DNA of 45,090 bases, the filler included, from Jimgerdemannia flammicorona (Eukaryota), in NCBI GenBank assembly GCA_003990765.1. It is 2 parts of 2 records of this genome, joined end to end, with 100 filler letters (N's around TTAATTAATTAA, not from the genome) between each part and the next. Parts side by side here need not be neighbours in the genome. Positions count along the whole stretch, not along the records: positions 1 to 22,496 come from RBNJ01001264.1; 1 more part is not named here. One strand, written 5' to 3'. The notes below the pieces were generated by a model. The model was not told the origin of the DNA, did no database searches, and saw only the letters and a program-made list of their open reading frames with translations. The position numbers and the translations under genes are program-made. Below, in pieces: positions 4,937 through 42,533 of this stretch (positions within the stretch are counted from its first letter, which is position 1; the number at the start of each line of letters is the position of its first letter).

Positions 4937-5492
4937 TCACTGGTTAAGACAAACATACATTCAATTATATGGCAGATTGATGTTGTAAAGAGATAGACAT
5001 GCACACTTGGTGCAGCACAATGCCAGCATTCACACAACACAACACACTCCTTTCGGCGCGCTTGAGTCTTACCTCTTTTTTCATGTCCCTGGGCCTCCAC
5101 ACCCTAAAAATCGACACAGTTTCCTTCCAGAACCCGTCCTCGCGTGCCAAGTCCCCGGGCGGTACGGCCTCGTGCTCGAACCCGATGCGGTTCAACTCGG
5201 CGAAGAGGCGCGCGTCGACACGTGTCGAGCGCGTCTGGTGAGCAAGGAGGATCTGCGTCGCGGACGTACGGGCGAGGGCTGGCGGGAGGGGGGAGAAGGC
5301 GCGTTTGTGAAAATTTTCAAGAATGGTAGGCGGAACAGATGCCACGATAGATGTTCAGAATTAGTTTCCGAACCTGACAGGGTGGCCACGAGGGGCTCGA
5401 TGAGGTATTCGACCCACACGACGTCCGCACAGAGGATGAGGTCGAAGAGTTCCTCAGTGGGAGGGAGGATCGTGAGGAGGTACTGGTCTCTG

Positions 5493-5523
<31 letters not shown>

Positions 5524-6358
5524 CCACATAGCGCACAGGTCGAGTGAGTTAAATATAAATATCGCTATACAGGAAAAATCGTCTAGAACGCAAAATACGT
5601 ACCTTTCAATCCAATCCAATGCCTCCACCCTCTCTACCGCCCCTACTTCAGGCCCTCTCAACTGCGCGTCGAGCCCATTCAGCGCGACGATACGGCGTAT
5701 CAACGGGACGACGCCCGGCGCGTCTGTGAGCGTCACGCGAGCTCCCAGAATGGCAGCAGAGAGACCCGGGAGGGATTTGCCGGCGCCCTAGTCGTGGGAG
5801 GTTACTGAAGCTTGACTTATGTTTGATTAGGTAAAATAGGAAGTATGGGAAAGATGAATGCTCACGAGCTCGATGATGCGGCGGCCACGAAGTAATAGTG
5901 TGGTGGCTTGTTTCTCGAGGTATTTCGATAGGATGATTCCCTGGGATTTATGCATCGTGGCAGTCATGAGTGTTGATGAAAAGCCCACCCAAGAAAGCCA
6001 ATAAATGGAGTTTGAGACTCACGCAATCCCAAATAGATTCAGCCGTCCGCACCGTATGCTCCTCGTCCTTAAGCTCCCATTTCGCACCATCCTCTCCGTT
6101 ATCCACAAGATACACCGGTCTCCCATCAATTTCAAATGACACACCACCCGCCGCCGATGCAGCACCCTTGCGCCTCGCAAAATCGAACGCTGGGAACCGC
6201 GCGCCCTCGATGAGCAGGATGGGCCGCTCTGGCTCCACGTCTTGCTGCTGCAGCCGCTGCTGTCGGTGGAGCAGGATGCGAGCTTCGGGCGAGGCAATGG
6301 AGACAGTGGACATGGCGAAAACGAGCAGGAGGAAGACGAGTCGGAGACCCAGGAGCAT
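4937..6358 (-). CDS. METTL21-family (Methyltransf_16) SAM-dependent protein-lysine methyltransferase, ~306 aa, spliced
   Basis: GT-AG exons 6358-6023, 5940-5866, 5787-5603, 5489-5374, 5278-5073 and TGA at 4939-4937 join in frame (918 nt). Motifs: IWDCGIILSKYL, IIELGAGKSLPGL (motif I), VTLTD, LDW, FDLILCADVVW (DxxY-like). Confidence 0.88.
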
Positions 6359-9399: not shown

Positions 9400-10780
9400 A
9401 AGATTGGGTTGATGTCTCAACCAAAGTTCTTTTTTTAAATTAGTTCTAGATGTTTAGTATTTTCAATATTTAGAAGTAGAACCTAATAGAGTATAGATTT
9501 ACTTAAGAGTAGTTTGTGGATTATTAAATAAGTTTATTTACTATTCATGATATTGCTATACTAGGAGTAGTTGTGTGAAGAAATATTGTGGAAAAGTGTT
9601 CAGGAGTTGTTCTTATCTATTTGAGTCTGAGATTCTGAGGTCTGAGGGAGGGGGTATTTATACTAATGGGAGGCTATCTGGACTAGACTAAATATGGATG
9701 TAGTACTTAGTATCTTACTGAGTCAGAATATAGTCATATAGTATAAGTATGAAGTGATATATCAAGAGATTATCTGACTGCTGAGTCAGTTTACAGTTAT
9801 ATTATATGAGACTAATCTAACTATACTAATGACTACTAAGCTATCTATAGATTTAGATACTATCTGGATAGTCTTTGATGATATCACTATCAATGATATC
9901 ATCTCTAATAAAGTACTCATCTAGGAAAAGTGGTTCTTGGATTACTTCTCTCTATTTGCTCAGGTAATAATATATTGAGATCTTATTACTATTCTATAAG
10001 ATAGTATCATCTGTCTCATATACTAGATATGGAGTTGATGGATAAAAGAGAGATACATTATCTTCACTTTTATTAGATTCACTGTCTGCATACCTTCTAT
10101 AGGTTACAGTACTATATATTGCTGGGTTATAGTAAGCTAGTAGCTATAGTTTATATCACTTATACTTAAGTGGTGAAGTTATTGATTCAATCTCAAAGGT
10201 TGTCTAAAGGTACAGGTTATGTTCTCTAGTCTCTTTGTTGTAGTTGAAGTAATCAAGAGTAAATATAGGTTAGTACACATACCAGTAGTCATTATCTCAA
10301 TAGGTCTTATAGATAGTTATATAAGTCTATTAATAAGGTTAGCAGAGTGATCAAGACTAGTAGGGATCCTTGACTTGAGGTCATATCAGTATTGAAGGGA
10401 TTATTATCTTCTACTTCATCATTATTAAACTAAATTATATTATAGATATCTTTCATGGTATATCCAACTTAGAGTATTTGCAAGATATAGTCATTGAGAT
10501 ATAGAAAGGTTCTGTCTGTGGTTTGAATATACTTGATATATTTATGGTTGAGTTTTTGTATCATATTGTTGATTTGGTCATAGGATAGAGTTGCAACCAT
10601 TTCAGTAGTAGTAACTTAGAGATGGAAAATAAAGGAGCTATACTCATAAAAGAGTTCTCAGTATTTGTATGTGATGAGTTTTTGATATTGAGACATCTGG
10701 ATAATGTTTATATCATGATAGTATTCAACTATATCTTCTAGGAGATGATTGATCTAATAGTAGCTTGAGATTTATCTAAT
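9400..10780 (-). mobile_element. Degraded long LTR of a third Gypsy family with a remnant U3 ORF
   Basis: Same TATA context as 15996-16010 (plus strand GGGGTATTTATAC at 9651-9663). Upstream minus frame INHLLED...QMSQYQKLITYKY*ELFYEYSSFIFHL*VTTTEMVATLSYDQINNM...FNNDEVED, later DDIIDSDII, parallels the LTR ORF at 20208-21011. Boundaries approximate. Confidence 0.55.
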
Positions 10781-11534
10781 TCAGTGGACCTCACTAAGTA
10801 TATTCAGAGTATTCTATTAGGCTTCTATGAAGTAGAGGAGTATCAGGCTATAGATATTCATAAGAGGACCTCCACATCTTTTAGACTCTTCAAAAACTTC
10901 ACTGATATGGCTCCAGCCACCTACTTAGTGATTAGCCCCAGTACCATTTTCACCATCACTGCTAAGCCCTGGAAGCACAGTGTAACCATAAATGCTGAGA
11001 TCAATTTCTTGAGTAACAGGGTCACCGCCAGGCCCATCATACCATCCACCAAATTCTCTTGTCTTTCAAGCCTCAGCTGCTCAGCCTCACCAACAGCCAT
11101 CACATCTGGATTTTTTTCCAGATTAGCAGTCCCATTGCTATCAGCAGTTACACTCCCCCTAGCTGCTACTCCCCCAGCTCCACTGCCCCCCCTTCTAAGG
11201 GCTACTCCTCCATGTGCCTCCACCTTCTTGGTCTCCTTGCCCCTCCTCAGCCAGCCCTTCAGCCCTGATGCCTGCTGCCTCCTCTTCACCATCTCTACAA
11301 AGCTCGCTCTCCCAGACCCTTGTCCACCACCAATACTGCCACTTCTTCTGTGTCCTCCTGCCAGCAGCCCTCTCATACCCCCCCCCAGGCCTGGGCCCCT
11401 CCCCACCTACTGCCATTCAAAAGTGCTTGGGCCACCCTACCCAGTATGCACCTCAGATTACCTGTCAGTCACCATGTTATTAGTCTCTTTTCTCCAAAAA
11501 CAATGTTGTAAGTGCCTTCCAAAGGTCATGTAAC
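10781..11534 (-). mobile_element. Probable LINE 5'/ORF1 fragment
   Basis: G-rich, essentially CpG-free, composition like the LINE pieces at 22607 and 32780. Gly-rich frame with RASFVEMVK (SYA-type motif common in LINE ORF1). It truncates the flanking Gypsy integrase. Confidence 0.4.
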
Positions 11535-13149
11535 CTGAATGGTACTGGAGAAAGATACCCAGATGCCTGGTCTTGCTGATCTTGTTTTTGTTTTTGGCAC
11601 TTATCATACTCTTTGACAAATTGGTGTAGGTCTTCTTCTATCTTGGACCACCATATAGTTCTTCTTGCTTTATCATATATGTTGGTTTCTTCTACTTCAT
11701 TACTTAATACTTCTTGTGTTCAGGTATTACTAGCTTTCCTCCTTTTCTGAGTATAGTGTTGTCTAGTTAACTGTTTCCAAGTCTGGTTGATGATGGTGAT
11801 TGTCCAGGGTTTGAGGTGGTTGGACATCTTCCACTGCCTAAGATAGCTGATTAATCCATAGTATAGCTCCTTATTCATATTGAATAGTTTTGATGAGGGT
11901 GTTTCAGGGTATCTTTAAGAGTGTATCAGCATTGGTATTGGTCTTTCCTGAGTAGTACTTGATAGTACAGTCATACTCTTGCAGCCTGTAGATCTATCTG
12001 GCATATATTCCTTTGGGGTTCAGAGTGTGGAATAGTCAGGCAAGAGCAGAATAGTCTATTTGAATGGTGAAGTGTTTCCTAGCTAGGTAGTAGTGGAACT
12101 TGTCTACTGCCCAAACTACTGCTAAGCATTTAAGCTTACATGACTCATAGTTCTGTTCTGCTCCACAGGTACCTCAGCTTGCATAGGAGATAATATATTC
12201 ATGTTCATCTTTCTTCTAAGCTAGGACTGCTCCAAGTCCTATAGTACTCGCATCTGTCTGCAGGATGAATTCTAGGTTCCAGTCTGGTCTTCTGAGAATA
12301 GGTGCTTGGGTCAACCTGGTCTTGAGTTCATTGAAGGTTTCTTGGTGCTGCTTGGTCTATTTGAATTTGGTTTCCTTCTTCAGTAGCTCGTAGATAGGTG
12401 CTGCAATGTTGGAATATCATTTGATGAATTTTCTGTAGTAGCTGGCCAGTCCAAGGAAGGCATAGACTTCTGTGGTTATTCTGGGTCTCAGGTAGGCTGT
12501 AATAGTCTCAATCTTCATGGGGTCTGTGTGGATTCCAGTCTGGTTGATGAGGTGTTCTAGGTAGGCAATTTCTTGAGCTGCAAACTTGCATTTCTTGGGC
12601 TTGATGTAAAGGCCATGCTCCTTGAGCTTCTTGAGGGCTAGCTGTATGTAATTGATATGTTCCCATACAGTATTGCTGAAGATGATCACATCATCAACAT
12701 AGATAAAGAGCTATTTTCCAATCATGTTGCTGAAGACTCTATTCATCATTCACTGAAAACTTGCTGGGGCATTGCATATTCCAAATGTGATGAAAGCTGA
12801 TTTCTCACTAACATCTTGAGTGAGACCAATCTGATGGAAGCCTGAGAACAGATCCAAGGTGGTGTATTTCCTTGAGTTCTGCTCACAGCCACTCTCTGTA
12901 AGCAGGTAGTATGGGTCTGACTTTCTGGTAGATAGGCTTGGTATCACTAGTGTCAACTTCATGGTAGTACTTGGGTTCTTGATTGTGGATATCTCTGAAG
13001 TCTGTAGTAAGTACTTCTTTGTTTTGGTGCAGAATCTTAAGAAGTTGTTCCTCTAGAGGAAAGTTTTCTCCAATGGTATATGTGTGCTTGTTCTGGTCCT
13101 TGTCTTTCTTATGCTCAAGTTCAGTAATCTTGGTGGTGGCATAGGCTCC

Positions 13150-13560
13150 TCTTCCAGTAGATCCAAAGCCTTGTTCTCCTCTCTTGGTCTTGATGAGTTC
13201 AATGGCTTCTATAATCTTGAGCTTTTTGATTTCATGGATCAGCATCTGACCAATCCTATCATGCTTCTTGACTTCAAATGGGGTGGTGGGGTTGTGATTC
13301 CTGACTATGAGAAAGATTTCACCAGTATAATTGGGGTCAATTACTCCTCCTTTAACTGAGATTTCGCTTTTGGCCAGATTGCTCCTGGTCTTGATAATTC
13401 CAGTATAGTTCTCTGGTAACTTGACTCCAATTCCAGTGCCAAGTAGGGTGGTGGTCTGTGGTTCAAGGGTAGCATCTTGAATACTGGCAAGGTTCATTCC
13501 TATGGCTTCTTCAGTCTTGTATTCTGGGATCTTAGCTTCAGGGTGAAACTTCTTGACCTT
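13150..13560 (-). pseudogene. dUTPase domain between protease and RT
   Basis: Trimeric dUTPase motifs: GMNL (I, mutated), TRSNLA (II), GGVIDPNYTGEI (III), DRIGQM (IV), RGEQGFGSTG (V). Confidence 0.92.
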
Positions 13561-15976
13561 AAGAGTGATGTCTGATTCTTGTTCCTCCTTATCATCACTG
13601 TCAGCCTGAAGCTCTGGGGGCTAGTCATCTTCTTCAGCTTTCCTTTTTGCTTCAGCGGCTTCTTGCTCATATTTCTGTTGGCAGATTTTCCTGACTTCAC
13701 TGATATAGGACCAGCAGTTATTCAGGTGTTCAGAGTAGTACATCCTAGTACCATGGTTGAGGGGCATAGCCATTGATGATCTTGTTGTACCACTGCTCAT
13801 CTGTGAGCTTGGGTATCTTGTTCTTGTTCTTGTTCACCAAGTGCATGAAGACCTCTGTGTTCTCTTCATCTCCTTCCTCTATGTCTGGTAGAACTCCTTT
13901 GTGGACATTGATAGAGACTTGTACCTTTCTTCTTCTATAGTTGATCTGCATCTTCTGGGCATTGAGTTCAATGATAGCCTTGGCCTTGTGAAGCTATTGG
14001 TTGCCAATGAGGATGTCATAGTTGGTGGTACTTGTGACAATCACATCTACTGGGATGGTAGCTCCTCCTATCTTGATGGGGACTTTTCAGATTTTGCCAA
14101 GAGGGGTAGCTCATATACCATCTGCTATGACATAGACCATCTTGGTAGACTCTTCAATATTCCAACCTAGGTGGTCAATTGCCTTCTTGCTCATGAGATA
14201 TCCTCCAGCACCAGTATCAATGATGACATTAAAGATATAGTTTTCAATCTGACATAGAGTATAGGTTGATGTCTTGTGCTGGTCTTTGGATTCTTCACCT
14301 GAGTTCTCAGATTCTTCCTGTGCATTGTGAGCTTCTACAATCTTGTACTCTTGATTCTTGACAATAGTTGCAAGTTCTACTCTCAACTACTGTCTAAAGG
14401 CAGGGACTTCAGCTAGTTATCCAAAAGTAGCATTGACCTTCTGTTCCTTAAGGTCCTTATAGATATCATACTGATGGATCTTGGTCTTGTACAGCTTCTG
14501 TTCCTTCTTGCTTTTGCTTTCTCCTGAGACTGGAGTAGTGCTTTCAATAATTTAGTGAGTAGCTTCATCTAACTTCATGTTTTGATCAATCTTCTCAGGT
14601 TGGATCTTGCTTTGAATAGTAATAGCTGGGATCTTATTTGATCTTCCAACTGGCTTGCTGTTGCTCTTCTTGTTATAGGGCTTGGACCAGGTTCTGGTAC
14701 CTTCAGTAGCAGGGTAGAATTCAAGCTCCTCATAGTATTCTTCATCATCAGTGTCACCAATCTCCTCAATGACTACTGCATTAGTTTGTTCTCTGGTTCT
14801 GCTAGTATTGCTTAGTTGGGCTTTGCATCTTGTTTTGGTTATGCAACTCTTTGTATAGTGGCCTTCTTCTCCACATCTGAAGTATGTGATATTGTATTCT
14901 TCTGTAGTAGCTGCAAATCTCTGCACTGGTCTCCTGTTGATGCTTCAGACTTCTCTAACAATATCACCAAGGTGTGCAGTCATCTTGGTGAACTGCTTGG
15001 CAAGTTCTTCCACTGGGTCAGCTTTGGCTGTCTTGGGGGTAGGTGGGGATGGTTGTCTGTTTACAACTGTGGCAGGTATGATACTAGTTGGCTTTGATGG
15101 CTCTATCTTGATGCCAGTTATTTTCTTCATTGAGTGTTCAGCAGGGTGTCTGGCAGTCCAATATCTCTATACAAAGACCACTTTCTGATCAAGGGTCAGT
15201 ATAGCTGGGTTAGACCAGATTGCTAGAGCAATTTCAGGGTGAACTCCTTTGAGGAAGGTTGAATCCGCTATTTGTTCCTTAAGGGCATCATCATAGCCAG
15301 CTAAGACAATCTGGTGGCAGATTCAGATATAGAATGAGTTGGGATCTTCACTGCGTCCCTGGCAGATAGTATTGAGTTGATCCTTGAGAGCTTGCTTGAT
15401 CTCTTCAGTATAATATATTGTTCTGAGGAAGGCCTTCATGTTGGCAAGTTTGGCTGCACCAGTATCAGCAATGGTAGCTACATTGAACTTGTCTCTGGCA
15501 GGTCCTTTGAGGCTGACTGGTAGAAGGGCCAATTGAGCATCCACACCAAGGGCTCATATGACAGTGAATTGTTCAAAGTCTTCAATAAAGGTCAGGATTG
15601 ACTCTTTAGTAGTATGTATATCCATAGAATGTGGGGGGATGTATTTCTATCTTGTCTTGAATTCTTGCAGGGGTGACTCTTATAGTCAGGGTAGTTATTG
15701 TGGAGGTTGTTTATTTTTCAGCTTGAAAGTTAGTAATTCATCTTGAATCACCAGCCAATGGGCACCAAGTTGTCATGTAGTGGTCGCTGAGTTCTTCAAA
15801 TATATCAGACTCCCTTCAAGGTATATCTCTTAGACTAACTCAAGTTTGTTATAAGCAAGTTCTTATTGGAGTGCCTTCCCAAGGTCTTATAGTCCTCAAA
15901 CTTCTTATCTTAAACTGTCTTATTATCTCTTAGATTGCTTGCAAGGAAGTATGTAAGTGAACTAGATAGAACTGAC

Positions 15977-16009
15977 TTTATTTCAGAGGAAATAAGAGGG
16001 GTATTTATA
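15977..16009 (-). promoter_or_regulatory. LTR TATA box (TATAAATA, 16009-16002) and downstream AATAAA (15982-15977)
   Basis: Both motifs are in element orientation ~210-240 bp from the PBS-proximal LTR end, and are identical in the second LTR copy (~19936-19968). Confidence 0.6.
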
Positions 16010-16130
16010 CAAAATATAATTCAATAGTTGCTAAGATATAAAGCTAAATATAAATTCTAATAACTAAAACTACTAAGTTTCAGGATCAGTACTGATGGTT
16101 GTACAGGTTCAGGATGCTGGTATAATTTAG

Positions 16131-16240
16131 TGTAATATCAAAATACCAGTACTGGCATTATTCAGTATTACATCAAAATACCAGTGCTGGCATTATTTAG
16201 TATTACATCAAAATACCAGTGCTGGCATTATTCAGTGTTA
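16131..16240. repeat. Three 35-bp tandem repeats with palindromic core (CCAGTRCTGG) in LTR U3
   Basis: CATCAAAATACCAGTGCTGGCATTATT recurs at 16171 and 16206 (period 35) with a variant at ~16136. A more diverged array is at ~20090-20200. Confidence 0.85.
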
Positions 16241-16248
16241 CAAAGAGC

Positions 16249-17087
16249 TTAGAGCAGAAAGTTCAGGATCATGGGGGCTTCATTCTTGTCATCACTGAAG
16301 GAGATGAGATTTATGAATTCATCATCATCATCATACAGGTCATATATCTCGTGTATGTCATGTGTTTCATGTACTTTGATGTTACACAGGATGATGTCAT
16401 TGCCAATGACATCATTACATTTAGCAGCAATGGGAATAAGAAGATCTGGAGCTCTCCAGTCTATGAGGTTCTCTTCCACAAAATAGGGGACAAATATGGG
16501 GTCTTGGGAGGTCTAACCTGGATGCTTGGGTCTTAGAATACTGAGATCAATCCTTGCAGAAATTGGTCTGGGTTGTCCTGGAGGATGGGATGCCAGAAGT
16601 CTTCTACTTCATCACTATTGAGGGTGATAGTGGACTGGGTCTCTGTAGCCACCCTGGCTTCTGGTACATTGATACAGCAGGATGACAGATCTCTGAAATC
16701 TGAGGCTCTAACATACTCTAAGTTGGGAATTGACTATGGTATATGCCTGAAGATCTGATGGATCTTCTTAGCTGTCCTCATTTCACATATATTCATAAGA
16801 GTGGTATCTTATAGCTCTTGAGTGCTGGCCTGTGAGAACTCTCAGCAGAGGAGATTTCCTATTTCATACTCCTGTCACATTTGGAGGCATTTGGTAGCAA
16901 TAGTGATCCTTGTTTCCATTTTATAGCAGTAGAGGATATAATGATAAGGATTACTAGTACTCAGGTTGACACTAGGAGTCCTTCTTGAGTGGGTCCTCAT
17001 AGCTCTTCTGATGTCTTGGAACATCCTTTCTTTAACTGAGGTGCCTTGATGATTCCTTGACCTTGAGATTTGGCAGATAGTAGACAT
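16249..17087 (-). pseudogene. LTR-encoded ORF of unknown function, copy A (disrupted)
   Basis: Joins track ORFs 16875-17087 and 16249-16479 through transition-type stops and one 1-bp indel near 16507; homologous to 20208-21011. Confidence 0.8.
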
Positions 17088-17439
17088 TTCATTTATAGTA
17101 AGTCTTTGAGCTATTTTGGGATTGGTGGGTCTTGTTGGTTACTGCTACTGCAGTTCTTTGATTCTTTTTTTATATTCTTCAAGATACTTGTGCTGTGATT
17201 ACAATGACTCACAGTTAGTCATCATTGCTCATCTCATATGCTGTATAATCTTCTTGTACTCTGATCTGGTGGCTTGCAAGGAAAGGCTGTCTCCTGTATT
17301 GATGTCATCATTCTGGGGTCACCATTACAGTATATATATTCATATTTGTATTTGTAAATATGCCCAAGAATATTTTTCTCTTACATTCTTCTGTTTATAT
17401 ATATGTATAAGTAAATTACATGATAAGCTTCATTTGTTC

Positions 17440-17741
17440 ACTAGATTTAAATCAGATAATTCAAATTTAGTAATTTAAATCTGATGATTCAAATCTGATA
17501 ATTTGAATTCAGAGATTTGAATTTAGTGATTTGAATTCAGTATTTCAAATTTAGTAATTCAAATCATTAGTTTGGAGATTTGGATCAGAGTAGTTATAAT
17601 TCGAACTAATTTGAATAAATCATATAATGAATTTAAACTGATTCTGATCAGTTTGAATTGATCATGTAATTAATTTGAATTAGTTTGAATCAGAAATAGT
17701 TACAATTTGAACTGATTTGAACTGACTTATTTGGAGTACTA
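17440..17741 (+). mobile_element. DNA-transposon right end (subterminal TTTGAA/TTCAAA repeats plus TIR)
   Basis: Dense TTTGAA/TTCAAA/TTCGAA motifs ending CTGACTTATTTGGAGTACTA, the inverse of 6606-6625. Confidence 0.6.
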
Positions 17742-19729
17742 TTGGGGAGTACTTCTTTATTAATATTGATGAGAATTTACATCTTCTGACCTTGGTAGAT
17801 GATCTGTATCTTCTAGGCATTGAGGTCAATTATTGCTCTGACTTTATGAAGCCACTGGTTGCTGATGAGGATGTCATAGTTGGTAGTATTGGTTATGATC
17901 ACATCTACTGGGATTATTGCTCCTTCAAACTTAATAGAAATATCTAGGATCTTTCTTAGAAGTGTGGCTCTTATATTATCTACTGTAATGAATACCAATT
18001 TAGTTTCTTCTTCAATCTCCCAACCTAGGTAGTCTGCTACTTTCTTACTGAGAAAATATTCTCCTGCTCTAGTATCAATGATGATCTCAAAGATTCTATC
18101 TTCAATTTGATAGATTATATAGGCAGATGTCTTATGATTATCTTTACTCTCTTCTCCAGAACAGAGTCTTCTTGAACATTGTTGGTCTTGGTTATTTTCT
18201 ATCCTTATTCCTTGGTTATCTCAGTAAGTCTATATCTCATTTGCTATCTAAATGTAAGTATTTCTGTCAGCTGGCCAAAGGTTGTATTGACCTTTTGTTA
18301 ACTGAGGTCCTTGAAGATACATATTATATTTGAAAGTTTTGGTCTTGTGAAGCTTCTTCTCCTTTTCTCCTTCACTAGCTGGAGTAGTTCCTCAAATGAT
18401 ATCTTGAACAGTCTGTTCCAGCTCTATATCTTGATCTATTTCTTTACCTTGACTTTCTATAGTAGTTTTCATCTGTTTATCTACAGAGTTCTTCTTAGGT
18501 CTTCCTAGTGGTTTCTTATAGGATTGTTTGTAAACATCCTTCTTGATAGTCTTGGCAGAGTAGGTTTCTCATTCTTCTATATCTGATTCCTCAATCTTCT
18601 CAAAGATAATGATATTGGCCTGTTTCTTATTTTAAGTAGTATTGCTTGACTGGGCCTTGCATTTAGTTTTGCTCATACATTTATATATATAATAGTCTTC
18701 TTTTCCACAGGTGTAGCAGATATCTCTCTTCTTGTCTAAGATGGTAGTAAACTTCTGAACTAAGTAGTGGTCTCTTCCTCTAATTTCTTTTATTATATCT
18801 CCTAGATGGGCTGTCATTTTGGTAGACTTCTTGGCAAGTTCTTCTATTGAGTCACTATTTCTCTACTATTCAGTAGCTCTTGGCTGAGATGTATTTTAAT
18901 TGATTACTATGATAGAGATTATGATAGTTGCCTTAAGTACTTCAATTCTAACTCTAGTAACTCTTTTTATTGTATAATCTTGTAGATATCTGGCTATCTA
19001 ATATCACTGGGCATAGATAACCTTTTGTACTAGATTCAGAACTACAGGTAATAAGTGGATGGCCAGAGCTATCTCTAGGTAGACTCTCTTCATAAAGGTT
19101 ACCTTCACTACTTGATCTCAGATAGTGGCAGCATAATCTATAAAGATTATCTAATATTAGATTCTGGTATAGAATGTGTTTGGATTCTTGCTAATTTCTT
19201 AATAAGTTATATTGAGCTGATCCTTCAGGGCTTACTTGATCTCATCTGTATAGCAGGTAATTTAGAGCCAGGTCTTCTGTACTATCAGTATAGTATTAGT
19301 ATTATTTTCTATATAGATTATAGCTGTGAATGCTACTCTTGTAGAACCTTATAGACTAAAGGATATGAGAGCTACTTACTGTACTACTGTCAGAGTTCTT
19401 ATAGCAGTATACTGCTCAAAATTATTAATGAAGATGATAATTGATTCATCTGAAGTATATCTATAGAATACTGATAGTCTCATATCTATCATGTCTGAAT
19501 GTCTTGATTTAATTTATATAGTTATTCAGATAGTAGTAATTGTTTGTTATTTAGCTTAAAAGTGAGGGATTCATCTTGAATCACTAGCCAATAGATACCA
19601 AGTTATAATATAGCAGACATACATATAACTGTGTAAGTATATCAGATTTCTGTATCTTAAAAACTTGATCTTCTTTAACTTCACAGAGTTCTCAAAATAT
19701 AGAGGTGGGTGAGTTTGAAGTATATCTGC

Positions 19730-21253
19730 TGCCATATAGTGGTCACTGAGTCCTTCAAATATGCCAGATTCTCTTCAAGGTATATCTCTTAGACTAACTC
19801 AAGTTTGTTATAAGCAAGTTCTTATTAGAGTGCCTTCCCAAGGTCTTATAGTCCTCAAACTTCTTATCTTTAACTATCTTGTTATCTCTTAGATTGCTTG
19901 CAAGGAAGTGTGTATATTGCACTGAGAAGACTGACTTTATTTCAGAGGAAATAAGAGGGGTATTTATACAAAATATAATTTAATGGTTACTAAGATATAA
20001 AGCTAAATATAAATTCCAATAACTAAAACTACTAAGTTCCAGAGTCGGCACTGATGGTTGTATAGGTTCATGATGCTGGTATAATTTGGTGTCACATCAG
20101 AATGCTAGTGCTGGAACAATTTTGCATCACCTCAGAATGCCAGTGCTGATATTATCCAGTATTACATCAAAATACTGGTGCTGGCATTATTCAGTATAAC
20201 AAAGAACTTAGAGCAGAAAGTTCAGGACCATGGGGGCTTCATCCTCATCATCAGAGGTCAGAATATCTTTAAAGGAGATGAGATCCATGAATTCATCATT
20301 TTTACATGCTTCAATGTCATGTGGGATGATGTCATTGCCAATAATATCATCACATTCAGTGGGGAAATTGGGGGCTCTCCAATCTATGAGGTTCTCTTCC
20401 ACAAAATAAGGAGCAAATATGGGGTCTTGGGGAGGTCTAACCTGGATGCTTGGGCCTTGGAATACTGAGATCAATCCTTGCAGAAATTGGTCTGAGTTGT
20501 TCTGAAGGATGGGATGCCAGAAGTCTTCTACTTCATCACTGTTGAGGGTGATAGTGGATGGAGCTTCTGTGGCCACCCTGGCTTCTAATACATTGATATG
20601 GCAGGATGACAGATCTCTGAAATCTGAGACTTTAACATACTCTAAGTTGGGAATTGACCATGGTGCATGCCTGAAGATCTGATGGATCTTCTTAGCTGTC
20701 CTTGCCTCACATATGTCCATGGGAGTAGCATCTTATAGCTCTTGAGGGCTGGCCTGTGGGAACTCCTGGCAGAGGAGATTTCCTATTTCATACTTCTGCC
20801 ACATTTGGAGGCATTCAGTAGCAATAGTGATCCTTGTTTCCATTTCATGATAGTAGAGAATAAAGTAATAGGGATCTGTAGTACCCAGGTTGACACTAGG
20901 AGTTCTTTTTGAGTAAGTCCTCATGGCTCTTCTGATGTCTTGGAATATCCTTTCCTCGACTGAGATGCCTTGGTAATTTCTTGACCTTGAGGTTTGGTGG
21001 GCAGTAGACATTTTATTTGTAGTAAGTCTTTGAGCTATTTTGGGATTGGTAGTTCTTATTGGTTGCTGCTACTGCAGTTCCTTCATCCTTCTTTTATATT
21101 CTTCAGAATGCTTGTACTGTGGTCACAATAACTCACAGTTGGTCATCATTGCTTATCTCGTATATTATATAATCTCCTTGTGCTCCAATCTGGTGGCTTG
21201 TGAGGAAAGGCTGTCTCCTGTACTGATGTCATCATTCCGGGATCACCATTATA
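19730..21253 (-). mobile_element. Solo long LTR of the 11535-17329 family, nested in the sister element's LTR
   Basis: End-to-end homologue of 15771-17329 (TGCCATATAGTGGTCACTGAG...CACCATTATA). Flanks CTGC (19726-19729) and CTAC (21254-21257) fit a 4-bp TSD with one G>A. Confidence 0.88.
20208..21011 (-). pseudogene. LTR-encoded ORF of unknown function, copy B (~267 codons, one internal TAA)
   Basis: Track ORFs 20733-21011 and 20208-20720 are in the same frame, separated by one TAA (20735-20733) explicable as CAA/CGA>TAA. Confidence 0.85.
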
Positions 21254-21639
21254 CTACTTATAGGCTTACTAGTTCCTTTACTTTCTCTTTACTTTGAAAT
21301 ATTTTGATCTTAGGTTTATTTACTCTCTATACTGGGAATATTTATATAAGTTTACTAGTTATAAGGTACTAAGTTATGACTATGTTTCCTGTGAGTCATT
21401 CTTTATAAGTATTAATTTCTGATATCTGTTAAGTCTTTAATAATCATCAAAACTTTAACATCTGTAAAATCTTGATATTTGTGAAGAGTTTAACATTTAT
21501 AAAAACTTTAATATTTGTAAAATGGCTGCTATTTGTAAGACTATACTATATTTGGGAATCAGATTTAGATACTACAATCAAATGTCTATTCTTCTAATTT
21601 ATATTCCTGATTTGAATCAACTATCATAATATATATAAA

Positions 21640-24976: not shown

Positions 24977-25380
24977 TGTAATATTTTAGTATAGTTTATT
25001 TTTTTTCTTTGTCTTTCCTCAATATTCTACAACCTTCTAGTACTTTCTGAACACTTAGAAATCCTTTCTTGATACTGAGCATCTACTAGTACTTATTTAG
25101 CTAGTCACTGAATATCCTGGAAACTTGTAGAACTTTATTTGTCATCATTTGTCATCCTTACTAAGAACTTTCCTCTTGGCATTTTCCTTTGATTTCTCAG
25201 ATCCTTCTGGATCCTTCTTTCAGATCTTGTATAAATATCTCCTTTGTTCTCATGAATAAAGTCTCAGAATATTTTCTCTCAGAAATCCTTCAAGAATACT
25301 TAAATCCTTAAGTATCTCTTCAAGCTACTTAGAACTACCAGAACTAGTCGCTTCCTCATTTAGAAACTAGAACTATTACA
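24977..25380 (+). repeat. 5' LTR
   Basis: TGTAAT...ATTACA; ungapped match to 30645-31048. Confidence 0.97.
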
Positions 25381-26529
25381 CTTAGTAGTAGTAGTTAAGT
25401 TATACCTAGCCTTATCAAGACACCTCTCAAGATATGTACCAGTTACAACACTATGGAGGACAATACCTCTCAAGATATGTATCAGTCACAACACTATGGA
25501 GGACAACAAGTGGAATTCTTTATACAGTACCTATAGCCCAGGCAATATCTCATACAATCAGCAAGAAGAAGAGGAATAGCAAAACCCTACTCAGTCAACC
25601 AAGGCCATCAAGAGTCTTTTGCAGACTGCATTAGCTCAGATTGCTCAACTTCAAGAACATATAAAAAGAAAGAAAAGCAAGGCCTCTGCTCATACATACC
25701 TCTGCACCCCCACCGATATCAATACATCCAACAGCAGTCACTATCGAGCCTCAGAAGCCTGACACTTTTGATGGTCAAAAAGGAGGACTGTCTACCGATG
25801 CCTGACTTTTCCAATTAGAGCAATATGGAGAACTGACTAATTTGGAAGAAGCAACACTAGTCTAATTTACCACCATACTCCTCCAAGAGAATACTGCAAT
25901 CTGGTGGTGAAACCATGTCTAGAATACCAGATTTGCTGGCCAGATTAGGACCTGAAATGAATTCTCTAATGCTGTTTAAGGCCAATTCAAACTAGTCAAC
26001 AGCACTAAGGCTACATGAGACCATCTGGCAAATGTCAAACAACTCAAGTCTGTACAAGCATATAATGCATAATTTCTATCAATTCTATTAGAATTACTAC
26101 ATGTCACTGAAGACAAGAAGGTTGATATGTACATTTGAGGCCTGAAAGGTCAAACCTGAGTTTGTATCAAGCTAGAAGAACCCAAGGACCTAGATATAGT
26201 AATGAAGATTGCTGATAGATTTGATATCATCATCTATGGTCACCGCTTTGAACAGAAGAGACCACCTTTCAACAACAACTACAAAAGGGAGGAACCCAAA
26301 GTCAGAACTATTAGACCTGCTCCCATGGACCTAGACACCATTGATAAGAGCAAGAAAGGCAAGCTTATATCTGAGAAAAAGGAGTATCTAAAGAAGGCTA
26401 GAGTCTGCTTCTTTTGCTATTAGCCTGGTCATATTATAACTAAATATCTCAAGAAAACCACTGAACCAAAAAGGATTCTGGTCCTATCCAAAGACACTCA
26501 AGGTCAACCAGTTGAAAAAGAAGTTGTAC

Positions 26530-26937
26530 TCAATTTTATGTGAGTTAACCCCAAGGTTCAGATCCCTCAAGTATAGTCAAAAAGAGCCATTGGTTTAGAC
26601 CTTCAAGCAGTATAACAAGTCACTATTCCAGCACATGAAAGAAGGCTTATTCCAACTGGCCTTTCAGTCAAAATCCCCAAGGAACATTATGCAAGAATTG
26701 CACCAAGATCTGGCCTCAGTTTCAAGCACTCATTAGATATTGGTGCTGGAGTTATTGACTCTGACTTCTGAGGTGAAATGCAAGTTCTGCTAGTCAACCA
26801 TAAGAATCAACCATATCATCAATGAAGGTGACAGAATTGTGCAGCTCATTCTGGAGCAAGCCACCCTACCAGTTATTAAAGAAGTCACCAAGCTGTCTCC
26901 AACCAAGCAAGATCAGAAAGGCTTTGGCAGTACTGAT
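26530..26937 (+). pseudogene. dUTPase domain between Gag zinc knuckle and protease
   Basis: [38 protein letters not shown]. In frame with gag upstream; one frameshift at ~26820, then in frame with the protease. Confidence 0.95.
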
Positions 26938-29900
26938 AAAGTTACAAGCATAGTCGAGAACTGAGCCAATTCAATACTCATTTTCAAAGGTCTAGTCAAG
27001 GAATAAGAGCTAGATGTTCTCATAGACAGTGGAACTGTTGGGAACTTCATCAATAAGAACCTCATTGATAAGCTTAAGATTCTTACCAAACTAGCTGGCA
27101 AGAATTGTAGAGTTATCACTGTAGATGGTACCATCTTACCAATCAACTCAATTGCCGCTAAACTCTCTCTCAAGATCCAGAAGTACTGGGAACATTTAGA
27201 TTTCGAGATAGCACTACTAGGAGACCATGACCTGATCCTAGGCAAACCCTAACTTATATGATACAACTCTCAGATTGATTGGACCAAGAATGAAGTTACC
27301 TTGATTTAGGATAGAGCTAACATTACTATCAAGTCAGACAAGACTCAGACAAGAACCCCAATTGCTACCCTTTCAGCAATTCAGTTCAAGAAGGCCCTCA
27401 AGAAAGCTATCTGTGCCTTTGTAGCACTGATCCGACTAAAGAAAGAAGACAAGAAGCTATCAATTAGTGAAAGTGTCAAGTTACTACTGAACAAGTAAAA
27501 GGATGTCTTCCCAAACAAACTACCTGGTCTACTACCTTCAAGAGACCATAACCATGAAATTAAGCTGGTACCTGATGTAGCTATACCTAAGAAGAAAGTG
27601 TACAATATGTCTCCACTCAAAATTGAAGCAGTCAAGAAAGAACTCAATGAACTCATTGAGTAAGGAGCCATCTAACCAAGCAAGTCACCCTTTGGCTCCC
27701 CAGTCCTATTCATTAAGAAAAAGGATGATACTCTGCAAATATGCATAGACTACCAAGCACTCAACAAGATTACAGTCAAGAACCATTATCTGCTACCACT
27801 CATAGATCAAATCTTTGATGCTCTTAAAAATGCAAAGTACTTCACCAAGATTGATCTCACCTCTGGATATCACTAAATTTGAATCAAGCCAGAAGACATA
27901 CCCAAGACTGCCTTCATGATATCCTTTGGACTCTATGAATTTCTAGTCATGGTCTTTGGTCTCACCAATGTGCTAGCAATCTTTCAAAATCTCATATAAA
28001 CTGTCTTCAAGGATCAGCTCTATATCTTTGTACTTGTATATATTGATGACATCCTGATCTTCAGTAGCACTGAAGAAGAACACCTCAAGCACATTGAACA
28101 AGTCCTCAAGATCCTCTGTGAGAACAAGCTCTATGTAAAGCTCAAGAAATGTGAATTCTTCAAAGATCAAGTTGAATACCTTAGACACATTGTATCAGCC
28201 AAAGGAATTCAAGTAGACCCAAGGAAAATACAAGCCATTGAACAGTAGTCTGTACCAGCAAACCTCACTGAACTCAGGTCCTTCCTTGGTCTGGCTGGAT
28301 ACTACTATCGATTTGTTAAGAACTTCTCTGATATTGCAGAATCTTTGACAAATCTCCTGTAAAAGGAACCCAACTCTGACCTCTGTATCCCCTACATCTG
28401 GGATACTTTCTGTCAACAAGCTTTTCAAGAACTCAAGAACCACCTGACCCATGCACCTGTCCTTAGAAATATGGACCCAAACTTGAAGTTCATAGTTACT
28501 ACAGATACATCTAACTTTGCCATTGATGCAGTCATTTCTCAAGATAATGATCAAGGATACTGACCTATTGCCTTTGAGTCAAGAAAATTGTCCCCCATAG
28601 AACAAAAGCTAGCTACTCATGAAAAGGAACTCTTGGCAATCATGTATACCCTCAAGACTTAGTGATACTACTTAGAAGGAGTTGAGTTTGACATGATCAC
28701 CAATCACAGGTCTCTTCAGTATATCAACACTCAACCAACCCTTTCTTGCCAACAAGCCAAGTAGAGTTAACTACTTCAGACCTTTACCCCAAACATCATC
28801 TACAAGCCTGGCAAAACTCTAGTTGTATCAGATGTACTTTCAAGAAGACCTGACCTTGCTGCAATTTTACAAGTCACCATGGCATCAGAATTCCTCAATC
28901 AGATCAAGAAGGCATATAAACAAGACTCTCTGGTTCTATAAAGAAATACTAAGGAATTCAAGAAAAAGTATACCATCAAGGACAATCTCATATACTATCA
29001 AAACAAAGTATATATTCCTACCAACCCTGAACTATGGTATAGATTCTTCATAAACATCATGACTCCCCACTAGCTGGTTATCTTGGAACTGAGAAGACTA
29101 TCAAGAATATCCAATGAGACTACTACTGGCCAAATATGCTCAAGGAAATCAAGGATTATATCCAAAGCTATGACCTTTGTCAAAGAAATAAGTCAAGTAA
29201 TCAAGTATCTGCTGGTCTTCTACAACTCTTGCCAATTCCAACCAAGAAGTTTGAACAAGTCATAATGGACTTCATTGTGCAACTCCCATGAACCAAAATA
29301 GGCTATGATGCTATTGTTGTGTTTGTGGACCATCTCACCAAGATTACAATTGCTGAGCCAACTACAACCAATATCACTACCCCAGAAATTGCAAGAATCT
29401 TCTTCAAGACTATCTTTCACCATTATGGACTTCTCTAAGTAATTATCAGTGACTGTAACCCCAAGTTTACAAGCTACTTCAAGCAAGCACTCTTCAAGAC
29501 CCTTGAAACCCAAATTGCTATATCTACTGCCTTCTATCCTCAAACTGATGGACAGACTGAGCAAATGAATAGAACACTTGAACAAATGCTCAGAAACTAT
29601 GTGTCTTATGAGTAAGATGATTGGGACCACTATCTGACCTATGCTGAGTTCACCTATAATAATGTCACCCAATTATCAACTAGTCTTTCTCCATTTCAGC
29701 TACTTTATGGTCAAAACCCTGAGACCTCTGCAAGCCTAGTCCCATTCCAGCAATCCAGTCACACACAAGTCCCCACAGCCCAGAACCTTATTGACAAAAT
29801 GGATTCCCTTCTCAAGATTGCCACTATGAATCTGCAGAAGGCTCAGCAATATCAAGCTAAGTATACAGATAAGAAGTAGCAAGATGTCATATATAATATT

Positions 29901-30644
29901 GGTGATATGGTTCTACTCCAAGCTGACAATATCAAGGCTCAATCTCAAGTCAACTGTCAGTTAGCCAAATTCCAGCCCAAGTACCTTGGACTCTTCGAAA
30001 TAACCAAGCAAGTCTCTACCTAGTCTTACTGCCTCAACTTATCAACAACCATACATATACACCCAGTATTTCATATGTCACAACTCAAGGCCTGGAACCA
30101 GTCACCTCTATATCCTGGCCAAATTCCAACACCATCAGCACCAGTGATAGTTGAAGACCACATCGAGTATAAATTCAAGAAAATCTTAAACAAACAAGTC
30201 TAATACTGTCACACAGAATACCTAGTCAAGTAGATGGGTTATCCTGAATATGATGCCACCTGGGAATCTGCTGCCAATCTCAAGAACTCTCAAGACCTCA
30301 ACTAAGAGTTCAAGCAAAAAGGAACTCATTGACAGCCTGTGAGGTTCTCCTCTTAGATAGTAGATGACATACTATACTGATCAGGCACATTAAGTATTGG
30401 GGCACTCTAAAGGATATAGTATCAGAAATAAGAGATATAGGAGAACTCTATAAATCCTGCAACCAATGAGGTTTGAACCAGTTCTTATCCAATTAAGATG
30501 ATACTTTGGCCCTTGCCTTATATAAGGATGGTCAATCCTTACCAATGAGCTAACATATTTTATTTGAAGTTTCTTTTAGTCTTATTGTTTATTATATATA
30601 ACTTTGAGAATTCAATAAGGATGTTGATTCTTAAGGAGGGGAGA

Positions 30645-31048
30645 TATAACATTTTAGTATAGTTTATTTCTTTTCTTTATCTTTCCTCAATATTCTACAA
30701 CCTTCCAGTACTTTTTGAACACTTAGAAATCCTTTCTTAGTGCTGAGCATCTACTAGTACTTATTTAGCTAGTCACTGAATGTCCTAGAAACTTGTAGAA
30801 CTTTATTTATCATCATTTGTCATCCTTGCCAAGAACTTTCCTCTTGGCATTTTCCTTTGATTTCTCAGATCCTTCTAGATCCTTCTTTTAGATCTTGTAT
30901 AAATATCCCCTTTGTTCTCATAAATAAAGTCTCAGAATATTTTCTCCCAGAAATCCTTTGAGAATACTTGAATCCTTAAGTATCTCTTTGAGCTACTTAG
31001 AACCACCAGAACTAGTCACTTCCTCATTTAGAAACTAGAACTATTACA
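30645..31048 (+). repeat. 3' LTR
   Basis: TATAAC (mutated TGTAAC)...ATTACA directly after the PPT and followed by TSD ATTCT. Confidence 0.97.
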
Positions 31049-41046: not shown

Positions 41047-42533
41047 ATGGCCTCCTCCTCGTCCCCTGCCAACGGCGTTGTTGGCATGAACCCTAATGGC
41101 GTAGGCCCAGCTGCTGCGCAGCAGGCGCCACACCACCACCCCCCAGTCACCCCTAACGGAGAATACAACCAGCTGCAACCAAACCTCGCCGACATTCTCA
41201 ATGACGATAAGATTCTGCGCCTCTACCAGTCCGTTAAGGAAATCAAGTCGCAGCAATCGCCCAAGCAGACCGGACAAATGTTCTTCGCCATTTGTCACGC
41301 TCTGGGGGACTCTGTTTACTTCCTCAAGATCCCCGACGTCAACAAAATTCTGTTCCGCCAGGACTCGCAGTATTTCGCTGTCAACCTTGCCGGCGCCCAG
41401 AGCGACGAGCGTGCCGGCGCGGACCCAGCCTCCGGCGGGCTCGGTGTCGGCGTCGGCGCTGGCGCCGTGGCGTTCGCCAACCCTGGCGCAGCGGCGACTC
41501 CTGACGGGTCGTTCCCACTAGACGGTATGAAACTTGAGCATACAACTTTTGCGGTCCAGCCACCTACCGCCGCGCCGGCAAGGATGGGCGAACAGACCAT
41601 GTTCTTCTCGAACCCACCCGTCGCGGGCACAGGAAAGAGGAAGAGCACGGATGATGGGAAGGAGCAAGGGAAGAGGGGAAGGAAACCTGGACCGAGGGAT
41701 AAGGATTACAATGCCAGACGTATGTTTTTTCATATTTTATATCGGTTATTTTTTATTTATTTATTTTATTTATTTTATTTTATTTTTCCCACGAGTTAAA
41801 TCTAGGCAACTGTAACTGTGAACTTATTTTTATTTTTATTTTTTTCGATGCAGGTGGTGATCTAATTCAAGATCTTCTCAACGTCACCGACGCTGACCTG
41901 CTTAACCACTCTGCCACCCTACCCGATGACGTCAAACTTTTGATACAAGGCCTCGACCATGGCTCCCACTCGTCCCTCGCACCTCCAACCTCTGCTCTTA
42001 CACGGCTCGCGCAGTACGCTAATCAGCAACCCCACGTGGACTGCGATTATGCGCCCAAGAACTCGGGCGTCTACTTTAACTATGAATACCACCAACTCTA
42101 CCTTGCGTTCCGTGACTTTGAGCGCGAGCAGCTGGCACGCACAGGTCAGACCCCTAACGAGGCCAAACCCACCATCGTCCAATTCCGGGCTGAGGTCGAG
42201 AAGCTTCTCGTCAGCACCAACTGGGAGGCGTTCCGGCGCCGGTTGACAATCGGGGAGCGCATCTATCAGCTGACCAACGTGTTGGGCAAAGGGTTCCTCC
42301 TCCTGTCCAAGGAGATCAGCGGACGTAAGTTGCTCCACGGTTTCAACACGACTGAGTGGGCCGACTTCGTCAAAGATTTTTCGAGACCAGAACACAAGGA
42401 TCTGGCGCAGAGGTTGCAGGCTAAGTTTGCGAGCGATAAGTATTTCTCGCTGGGGCCGAGCGTGCTGCAAGTACAAGGACATCCGCAGGCGCAGGCGCAG
42501 CCACAGCCAGTGGCGACATATCGGTACGCCTAA
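41047..42533 (+). CDS. Hypothetical protein, ~450 aa, two exons, possibly nuclear
   Basis: Exons 41047-41719 and 41854-42533 join in frame over a GT-AG intron (YNAR-RGDLIQD). GC-rich codons; basic GKRKS...KRGRKPGP segment; helical C-terminal region. No family recognised. Confidence 0.8.

Follow-up and report, generated by a model that had tools for sequence, protein, structure and literature searches.

A probable accessory gene within the long terminal repeats of a dUTPase-bearing Ty3/gypsy family of the fungus Jimgerdemannia flammicorona

Long terminal repeats (LTRs) usually pass for promoter and terminator modules without coding capacity; they are masked in annotation pipelines, and their divergence serves as a neutral clock. 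In Jimgerdemannia flammicorona (Endogonales, Mucoromycota), we have analyzed a window of 45,090 nucleotides, the whole stretch considered here, in which two copies of a 1.5-kb repeat each contain an open reading frame (ORF). The original prediction took this repeat for the LTR of a Gypsy family that encodes a protein of about 267 residues in its U3 region. Is this ORF a gene, is the repeat that carries it really terminal, and what might the product do? We propose, with a probability of roughly 0.7, that a dUTPase-bearing Ty3/gypsy family of J. flammicorona has the 1.5-kb unit as its LTR, and that this LTR harbors a complete accessory gene (267-323 codons) under purifying selection. All features of interest lie on the minus strand (Table 1). 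Endogonales have some of the most repeat-inflated genomes within Mucoromycota. That of J. flammicorona has a size of ~240 Mb, with repeats accounting for more than 77%, according to the accessible part of its description (PMC10386755).

Copy B of the ORF is interrupted by a lone in-frame TAA at codon 93 (20735-20733) and is recognized by a profile hidden Markov model (HMM) of the family with an E-value of 4e-134. From base composition, 14.3 stops are expected over its length, where one is observed and the other five frames contain 9-25; the probability of at most one stop in this span is ~1e-5. Copy A is degenerate, with stops at codons 71 (TGA), 82 (TGA), 93 (TAA), 118 (TAG) and 185 (TAA) and a 1-nt deletion near 16509, and the HMM matches it in two frames (E-values of 1.6e-94 and 5.7e-17). 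Each stop is a single transition away from a sense codon of the other copy or of intact relatives (TGG, CAG/CGA or CAA); at codon 93, where the window copies have TAA, the relatives P0002, P0003 and P0004 encode glutamine. The two ORFs further differ by indels of 12, 39 and 15 nt, all of which preserve the frame and fall into the C-terminal acidic tail, whereas the remaining LTR alignment has no other indel except the 1-nt deletion of copy A. Both copies end in EAPM(V/I)LNFLL, followed by the stop codon. Transition-derived stops, in-phase indels ahead of a shared C-terminus and a 1-bp indel in copy A had all been noted at the outset, and they stand. An in-frame stop is found 19 codons upstream of the ATG, and the ORF is therefore no continuation of pol. 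Its start and stop both lie within the terminal repeat, and it is present in the solo LTR as well.

Outside the window, 14 environmental proteins (cluster members included) and two metagenome loci match the ORF, with identities of 29-82%. The proteins were collected with a word-indexed search, an exhaustive phmmer search of 1.84 billion representatives (E<=1e-3) and then a profile search. The word-indexed search yielded five relatives at 60-78% identity among 96 candidates. Of seven phmmer matches, five were accepted, down to 33% identity (P0002, P0009, P0010, P0011 and P0012), and two long repetitive proteins (E ~5e-4) were judged by eye and dropped; the profile search added P0026 and P0027. 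All 14 proteins are encoded on environmental contigs from JGI or ENA, 0.7-4.8 kb in length, and lack both Pfam domains and informative names. P0003 represents an intact, full-length homolog of 271 residues. As only called genes are listed, these proteins favor open frames, a bias that does not affect our second metagenome scan, conducted with tblastn on DNA. It returned two loci, L001 and L002, both with intact frames (291 and 323 codons). A first metagenome scan with an alignment of the close family had produced 280 pattern matches, and a scan of viral_contigs 32; none of either set was confirmed.

These loci allow an estimate of selection at the DNA level. The dN/dS ratio is 0.22 for window copy B and L002 (pN 0.278, pS 0.662) and 0.18 for L001 and L002 (pN 0.400, pS 0.738), compared to 0.77-1.30 for the same alignments with the reading frame shifted by one or two bases; with synonymous sites almost saturated, the ratios are rough, but their contrast with the shifted frames is not. 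It is hard to reconcile these data with a frame that is open by chance in a long LTR. The stops in both window copies and the lack of a known domain or fold would fit such a frame, but the low probability of so few stops, the intact diverged homologs, dN/dS ratios of ~0.2 versus shifted controls near 1, and the in-phase indels render it extremely improbable, and we consider it refuted by the phmmer relatives, the intact metagenome loci and the dN/dS values. On sequence evidence, we regard the ORF as a genuine, selected protein-coding gene within a Ty3/gypsy LTR. The tests suggested for the original prediction, openness of the frame in relatives (2/2 loci fetched as DNA), dN/dS and indel phase, speak for such a gene.

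The second question is whether the 1.5-kb repeat is terminal. Its two copies, LTR A and LTR B, align over their full length with 84.7% identity, and a third copy was not found elsewhere in the window. Read on the minus strand, LTR A starts with TGTAATGG and ends with CATGACA (TG...CA). Metagenome contigs of other LTR copies diverge exactly at 17329, and in one of them (run X3) the purine run AGGAGGAAGA is located directly 5' of the LTR start; it looks like a polypurine tract, a weak indication from a single contig. Just past the other end of LTR A follows the primer-binding-site (PBS)-like TGGTGCCCATTGGCTGG, which is kept, with transitions, in an older element of the window, B'. Its cognate tRNA was not matched within the window, where we found no tRNA genes. 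LTR A belongs to element A, a dUTPase-bearing Ty3/gypsy (Metaviridae) LTR retrotransposon. A gag zinc knuckle (CCHC) and Pfam scans of stop-to-X translations give the domain order gag-protease (PR)-dUTPase-reverse transcriptase (RT)-RNase H-integrase (IN), excepting the integrase core; the element is broken off near 11500 and lacks both this core and the 3' LTR. Where it ends, a block of 46% GC (10769-11533) contains a 254-codon open frame on the plus strand without a Pfam match.

LTR B, which starts with TATAATGG (TA, one transition from TG) and ends with CA, adjoins a gag-PR remnant and could be mistaken for its 5' LTR. This was ruled out because the remnant, B', comes with an LTR end (19604) and a PBS-like sequence (19600-19584) of its own, because the TATA/AATAAA module of B' stands upstream of LTR B, and because a GTAG/GCAG target-site duplication (TSD) flanks LTR B at a site that is bridged by contigs. 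Soil-metagenome contigs without LTR B join 19729 to 21260 and 19730 to 21262, and three more skip it by joining 19662-19680 to 21259-21262, with moderate reliability given contig sides of 28-36 letters at 80% likeness. LTR B is hence a solo LTR, as initially assumed, and a solo LTR with a target duplication is in turn evidence that the 1.5-kb unit acts as a terminal repeat; the position of the PBS-like sequence, 2 nt past LTR A, agrees with this. The internal region of B' (19603->17745) retains ~63% identity to that of element A and is heavily mutated by transitions. Between B' and LTR A, a spacer of low depth contains AT-rich tandem repeats with periods of 14/28/42 and 22 (17444-17725).

Having established gene and repeat, we turn to the layout of the LTR. 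It begins with TG and ~150 nt of sequence, followed by a first TATA box (TATA1, TATAAAAG in LTR B), 65-87 nt with the leader AGACTYACYACAAAYAAA, the ATG and ORF, the 35-bp repeats, a second TATA box (TATA2, TATAAATA), AATAAA, ~200 nt of R/U5, the terminal CA and the PBS-like sequence. The coordinates confirm the earlier placement of the ORF upstream of the 35-bp repeats, TATA box and AATAAA in both LTRs. TATAAAA(G/A) occurs 65-87 nt before the ATG in 4/4 DNA copies (window A, window B, L001 and L002). TATAAAA is invariant across their alignment and the adjoining leader, AGACTYACYACAAAYAAA(G)ATG, is also conserved, even though the ORF proteins have diverged to ~40% identity. L002 is moreover colinear with the window LTR, with TATAAAAG, leader, ORF, a spacer of ~180 nt, TGTATAAATACCCCTC...AATAAA and U5-like sequence; it reaches neither LTR end, and its TGTATAAATACCCCTC...AATAAA module is identical to that of the window. 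The LTR layout thus appears to be shared by one distant relative, L002.

The 35-bp repeats have the core motif AGCACTGGYATTYTGA, also given as CCAGCACTGG. A 16-nt motif of the repeats, with three mismatches, recurs just upstream of TATA1 in both LTRs, a lead at most, given that ~3 chance matches with three mismatches are expected in the window. In L001, a 33-nt motif is found at 170-202 and 1481-1513 (82% identical, 1311 nt apart), with one copy ~95 nt before TATA1 and the other ~230 nt past the ORF, which recalls the window motif near both TATA boxes.

How would such an LTR be transcribed? The conserved TATA1 before the ATG suggests that the ORF has its own promoter in the LTR and uses the LTR poly(A) signal, and that each LTR may be its own transcription unit. 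TATA2 lies ~240 nt past the ORF end and is followed by AATAAA after 27 nt. With such a spacing, RNA initiated in the 5' LTR classically lacks the poly(A) signal, and for this reason we take TATA2 as the presumed promoter of the element and tentatively assign the ORF to U3 instead of R. TATA2 would then fire genomic RNA at or just past AATAAA, such that the ORF would be present only at the 3' end of this RNA, and a separate mRNA of ~1.1-1.2 kb would be driven by TATA1 and terminate at the poly(A) signal of the same LTR. Each LTR, be it 5', 3' or solo, would thereby be an autonomous gene. The layout could also be read with the ORF in R: genomic RNA would start at TATA1, the ORF would be its first cistron (an 'ORF0' before gag, repeated at the 3' end), and TATAAATA...AATAAA would be a 3'-end signal alone, read through in the 5' LTR. 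TATA1 is indeed the conserved TATA box nearest the LTR start, and UA-rich elements before AAUAAA are typical poly(A) efficiency elements of fungi. Likewise, an extra ORF0 upstream of gag-pol is described for plant Retrosat2 in the available text of PMC3485330. Yet R would then measure ~1.2 kb and RNA from the 5' LTR would have to bypass a strong AATAAA lying 1.2 kb past the cap, the 27-nt spacing is the arrangement that excludes the poly(A) signal from 5' transcripts, and the TATA2 module is kept in L002 and B'. We therefore consider an ORF in R unlikely and retain its presumed placement in U3.

Table 1. Positions of the LTRs, the ORF copies and the related elements in the window
Feature	Position	Strand	Basis or remark
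LTR A, 5' LTR of element A	17329->15771, 1559 nt	-	end-to-end alignment with LTR B; TG...CA
TATA1 of LTR A, TATAAAAA	17167..17174	-	87 nt before ATG; putative promoter
LTR-borne ORF, copy A, degenerate	16249..17087	-	ATG at 17087, stop 16251-16249
35-bp tandem repeats, LTR A	16115-16242	-	3.7 copies; Tandem Repeats Finder (TRF); between ORF and TATA2
TATA2 TATAAATA + AATAAA, LTR A	16009-16002 + 15982-15977	-	presumed promoter and poly(A) signal
PBS-like TGGTGCCCATTGGCTGG	15751..15767	-	begins 2 nt (ac) after LTR A end at 15771
Element A, internal region	11500..15750	-	Pfam; Ty3/gypsy domain order
Element A, gag	Met ~15625; zinc knuckle 14884-14843	-	first knuckle Cys now Tyr
Element A, PR	14272-13940	-	Pfam aspartic protease, 6e-08
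Element A, dUTPase	13539-13153	-	Pfam, 9.7e-25; between PR and RT
Element A, RT	12878-12558	-	Pfam RVT_1, 1.3e-17
Element A, RNase H	12356-11973	-	Pfam RT_RNaseH_2, 4.4e-30
Element A, integrase zinc-binding domain	11683-11582	-	Pfam Integrase_H2C2, 1.1e-4
LTR B, solo LTR in U5 of older related LTR	21253->19730, 1524 nt	-	alignment, TSD, empty-site contigs
TATA1 of LTR B, TATAAAAG	21091..21098	-	87 nt before ATG; putative promoter
LTR-borne ORF, copy B	20208..21011	-	267 codons; ATG at 21011, stop 20210-20208
35-bp repeats, LTR B	20074-20182	-	TRF 20074-20148, 2.1 copies; third motif copy 20167-20182
TATA2 TATAAATA + AATAAA, LTR B	19968-19961 + 19941-19936	-	presumed promoter and poly(A) signal
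TSD, upstream copy GTAG	21254..21257	-	flanks LTR B
TSD, downstream copy GCAG	19726..19729	-	one T/C transition from GTAG
Older related element B'	17745..19729, truncated ~17745	-	own LTR end, PBS-like sequence, gag, PR
B' 5' LTR end	19729-19604, continuing from 21254 beyond solo LTR	-	split by LTR B
B' TATAAATA / AATAAA module	21346-21339 / 21320-21315	-	upstream of LTR B
B' PBS-like sequence	19600-19584	-	transition-mutated TGGTGCCCATTGGCTGG
B' gag knuckle, plus PR	18718-18677 (knuckle)	-	Pfam RVP_2, 2e-06

The third question concerns the product. Its N-terminus is basic, with a net charge of +1 to +8 over 45 residues, and is followed by an acidic, helical core, at residues ~15-215, with invariant or near-invariant positions in motifs such as HQ(I/V)FRH.P, WNP(I/L)LQDNPDQ and F(Q/E)GPPI, and conserved motifs are kept down to 29-34% identity. 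The tail varies in length between 55 and 126 residues, consists of 21-31% Asp/Glu and has a net charge of -13 to -25; in most members, P0012 and P0027 being the exceptions, it contains one or two DLIxF motifs and a near-C-terminal P-x-VLNF. It is also the part of the LTR that is least covered by metagenome contigs (depth of 46.7 in run X1, versus 278-1151 elsewhere on LTR A). Hydrophobic segments are absent from the protein. AlphaFold2 models the whole protein with a pLDDT of 50.4 and the core alone, from 16 sequences, with a pLDDT of 69.7 and a pTM of 0.61; the predicted core has eight to nine helices and a small hairpin.

Comparisons with known proteins returned little. For the 10 members scanned, Pfam gave no family at E<=10, with two chance-level rows only, and PDB sequences no match at E<=10. 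The best ESM Atlas score of 0.83 is uninformative, and a VIA search with the whole-protein model peaked at noise level (Z 4.8). The core model likewise remained at noise level in Foldseek searches against PDB (best E 1.2) and BFVD (best E 0.16) and in a VIA-wide search (best Z 4.9); no DNA-binding fold was recognized. To judge from these searches, the protein family has no detectable relatives outside the environmental set and no known fold. Neither homology nor a fold match speaks for the transactivator or anti-silencing factor suggested at the outset.

A basic head, a helical body and an acidic tail studded with hydrophobic residues would be the build of a nuclear regulator or adaptor. The composition fits the activator class, with its basic N-terminus, the charge of the tail and the DLIxF and VLNF motifs, which implies no homology. 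From this build, and from the 35-bp repeats between ORF and TATA2, comes our guess of a trans-activator that boosts the family's own LTR promoters via these repeats; we offer it as a possibility on the doubtful side. Taken together with the layout of the LTR, the view that every LTR, solo LTRs included, is a self-contained gene for the family's trans-acting factor (TATA1, leader, ORF and poly(A) signal) is a tentative one.

The same LTR anatomy would serve a factor of the opposite effect, a self-limiting (copy-number control) or dominant-negative protein whose dose grows with the LTRs and damps transposition. Ty1 p22 provides a precedent. The dose of such a factor would scale with LTR number, and the summed contig depth in run X1, which is not a copy number, is 47-1151 for the LTR versus 1.1-1.4 for unique spacer. 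Still, we found no similarity of the protein to gag or any other element protein, the acidic tail with its bulky hydrophobics is more typical of activation or adaptor regions, and a genome with more than 77% repeats (PMC10386755, accessible part) hardly speaks for an effective restraint. A self-limiting role is accordingly quite unlikely.

A further possibility is that the ORF is a passenger, a host or foreign gene that was captured into the LTR together with its promoter and has no role in the life cycle of the element. Its own TATA box and leader are reminiscent of a transduced cassette, and the older B' LTR shows no ORF, so that the gene may be dispensable. On the other hand, searches of 1.84 billion representatives and 5.8 billion clusters revealed no cellular homolog, the relatives are without exception found on short orphan contigs and devoid of Pfam domains, and purifying selection acts across lineages that are 60-70% apart in protein, with LTR colinearity kept. 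Useless cargo would be expected to decay under error-prone RT replication. A passenger is thus very unlikely.

Several observations weigh against this proposal of a selected, LTR-resident accessory gene. Both window copies are dead, and they have the TAA at codon 93 in common; their common progenitor was therefore possibly already broken, in which case the ORF may not be needed in cis. Of the original idea that the gene survives in solo LTRs, its presence in solo LTR B stands, but functional survival finds no support in these dead copies. The dN/dS ratio of copies A and B is only 0.45, compared to 0.63 and 0.68 in the shifted frames, a comparison that is uninformative because most differences stem from transition decay after insertion. 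The B' LTR has the TATA2 module but no remnant of the ORF by tblastn and family HMM, which over six frames of the window found copies A and B only; a noisy blastn search with purine/pyrimidine recoding (5,618 hits from 20 shuffles) recovered only the known A and B matches as well. Of the homologs expected to lie in LTRs, L002 shows the LTR layout and L001 the upstream TATA box and leader, with no TATA2 module in the 285 nt past its stop. The family is so far represented by a small number of short environmental contigs, and the window holds 5'-type and solo LTRs only, with no 5'/3' pair from one element. Lastly, the transcription units of the LTR are proposed from sequence, and the function from composition; Pfam, PDB and four fold searches gave nothing.

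Among known systems, the closest layout is that of mouse mammary tumor virus (MMTV) sag, an analogy of layout without homology. As far as the available sources describe it, sag is a complete ORF of ~300 codons located wholly in a long (>1.2 kb) LTR, upstream of the LTR TATA box, and thus present in every LTR copy. The MMTV pol region also encodes a dUTPase. In contrast, the Sag product of this vertebrate virus is a type II membrane glycoprotein, without sequence or fold relation to the J. flammicorona protein, which is acidic and helical, lacks a hydrophobic segment, and is encoded by an ORF with its own conserved TATA box in a Metaviridae retrotransposon without env in a fungal host. Other accessory genes overlap the 3' U3 of retroviruses, such as lentiviral nef and spumavirus bel2/bet; spumavirus tas encodes a transactivator, and human T-cell leukemia virus type 1 Tax acts on three 21-bp repeats in U3. 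They resemble the fungal case in having accessory coding sequence in U3, and in the pairing of a transactivator with an acidic activation region and tandem U3 repeats, for which the 35-bp repeats would be the counterpart. Unlike the fungal ORF, which has its start, stop and putative promoter inside the LTR, they overlap it partially and start in unique sequence; again, there is no homology.

Within Ty3/gypsy, the nearest parallels are lineage-restricted orphan ORFs of plant elements with long LTRs, namely ORF0 of Retrosat2, RIRE3 and RIRE8, ORF1 of Ogre, and the 3' ORFs of Tat/Athila. In the accessible text of the sources, these additional ORFs evolve faster than pol, yet with Ka<Ks (PMC3485330; PMC7264820), and occupy the internal region, either ahead of gag or behind pol (PMC3485330). 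The fungal ORF, by contrast, is part of the terminal repeat, so that it becomes duplicated and stays behind in solo LTRs. Phrases for an LTR-internal ORF position occur zero times in the text of the plant review (PMC7264820). The dUTPase of element A has the same placement, between PR and RT, as in fungal PosPlaTy3-5 (Postia placenta), Phanerochaete elements and Tuber Tmt1, and as in bdelloid Juno, Vesta and TelKA; the available portions of these reports mention no LTR-internal ORF in them (PMC2864245; PMC5408684), and a figure legend in the former includes an 'add. ORF' whose place is not stated there. Crapaud, a fungal element with diversified U3, has LTRs of only 339-443 bp in the accessible part of its description (PMC10787394). 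Overall, the literature covered, with most subscription journals, figures and supplements outside it, yielded LTR-internal ORFs for MMTV only and none for fungal or other non-vertebrate retrotransposons. Within these bounds, the initial statement that no U3-type gene is described in fungal Metaviridae is upheld, and an LTR-resident gene appears to be undescribed among non-vertebrate retroelements.

A selected gene in the LTR would break both habits named at the beginning, masking and the neutral clock, for this J. flammicorona family, and would place a fungal example beside MMTV sag, the only textbook case. Since solo LTRs keep the gene, the family could leave expressed coding capacity behind after the loss of its elements, and an LTR-borne regulator would be a concrete candidate for how a repeat family escaped control in Endogonales. 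Should the LTRs indeed be autonomous genes, the accessory gene would be amplified and dispersed with the LTR and outlive its elements, as a 'public-good' or dose-sensing gene with a copy number that tracks past activity of the family. With it, non-vertebrate retroelements would gain their first LTR-resident gene, and its product would define a new protein fold family.

The inactivation of both window copies has a signature of its own. LTR A and LTR B differ by 177 transitions and 22 transversions. The base that follows a C/T mismatch is preferentially A (40 of the 70 mismatches at which this base is conserved), and no CpG is conserved across the whole LTR alignment. Metagenome contigs of run X1 similarly show 692 transition places versus 75 transversion places. 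The copies were inactivated by C>T/G>A transitions that resemble repeat-induced point mutation (RIP), and we call these differences RIP-like in a Mucoromycota fungus, given that RIP is established only in Dikarya according to the available text of bioRxiv 10.1101/2023.09.13.557621.

Elsewhere in the window, we observed a different LTR retrotransposon on the plus strand (24979-30946), with 300-nt LTR stretches that are 94% identical and spaced 5668 nt apart and with protease, RT and RNase H matches at 27007-28560. A presumed host gene on the minus strand (5317-5787) may, by eye, resemble a methyltransferase exon. On the plus strand, positions 41847-42530 encode a J. flammicorona hypothetical protein (100% identity) with 48-56% identity to Mucorales proteins.

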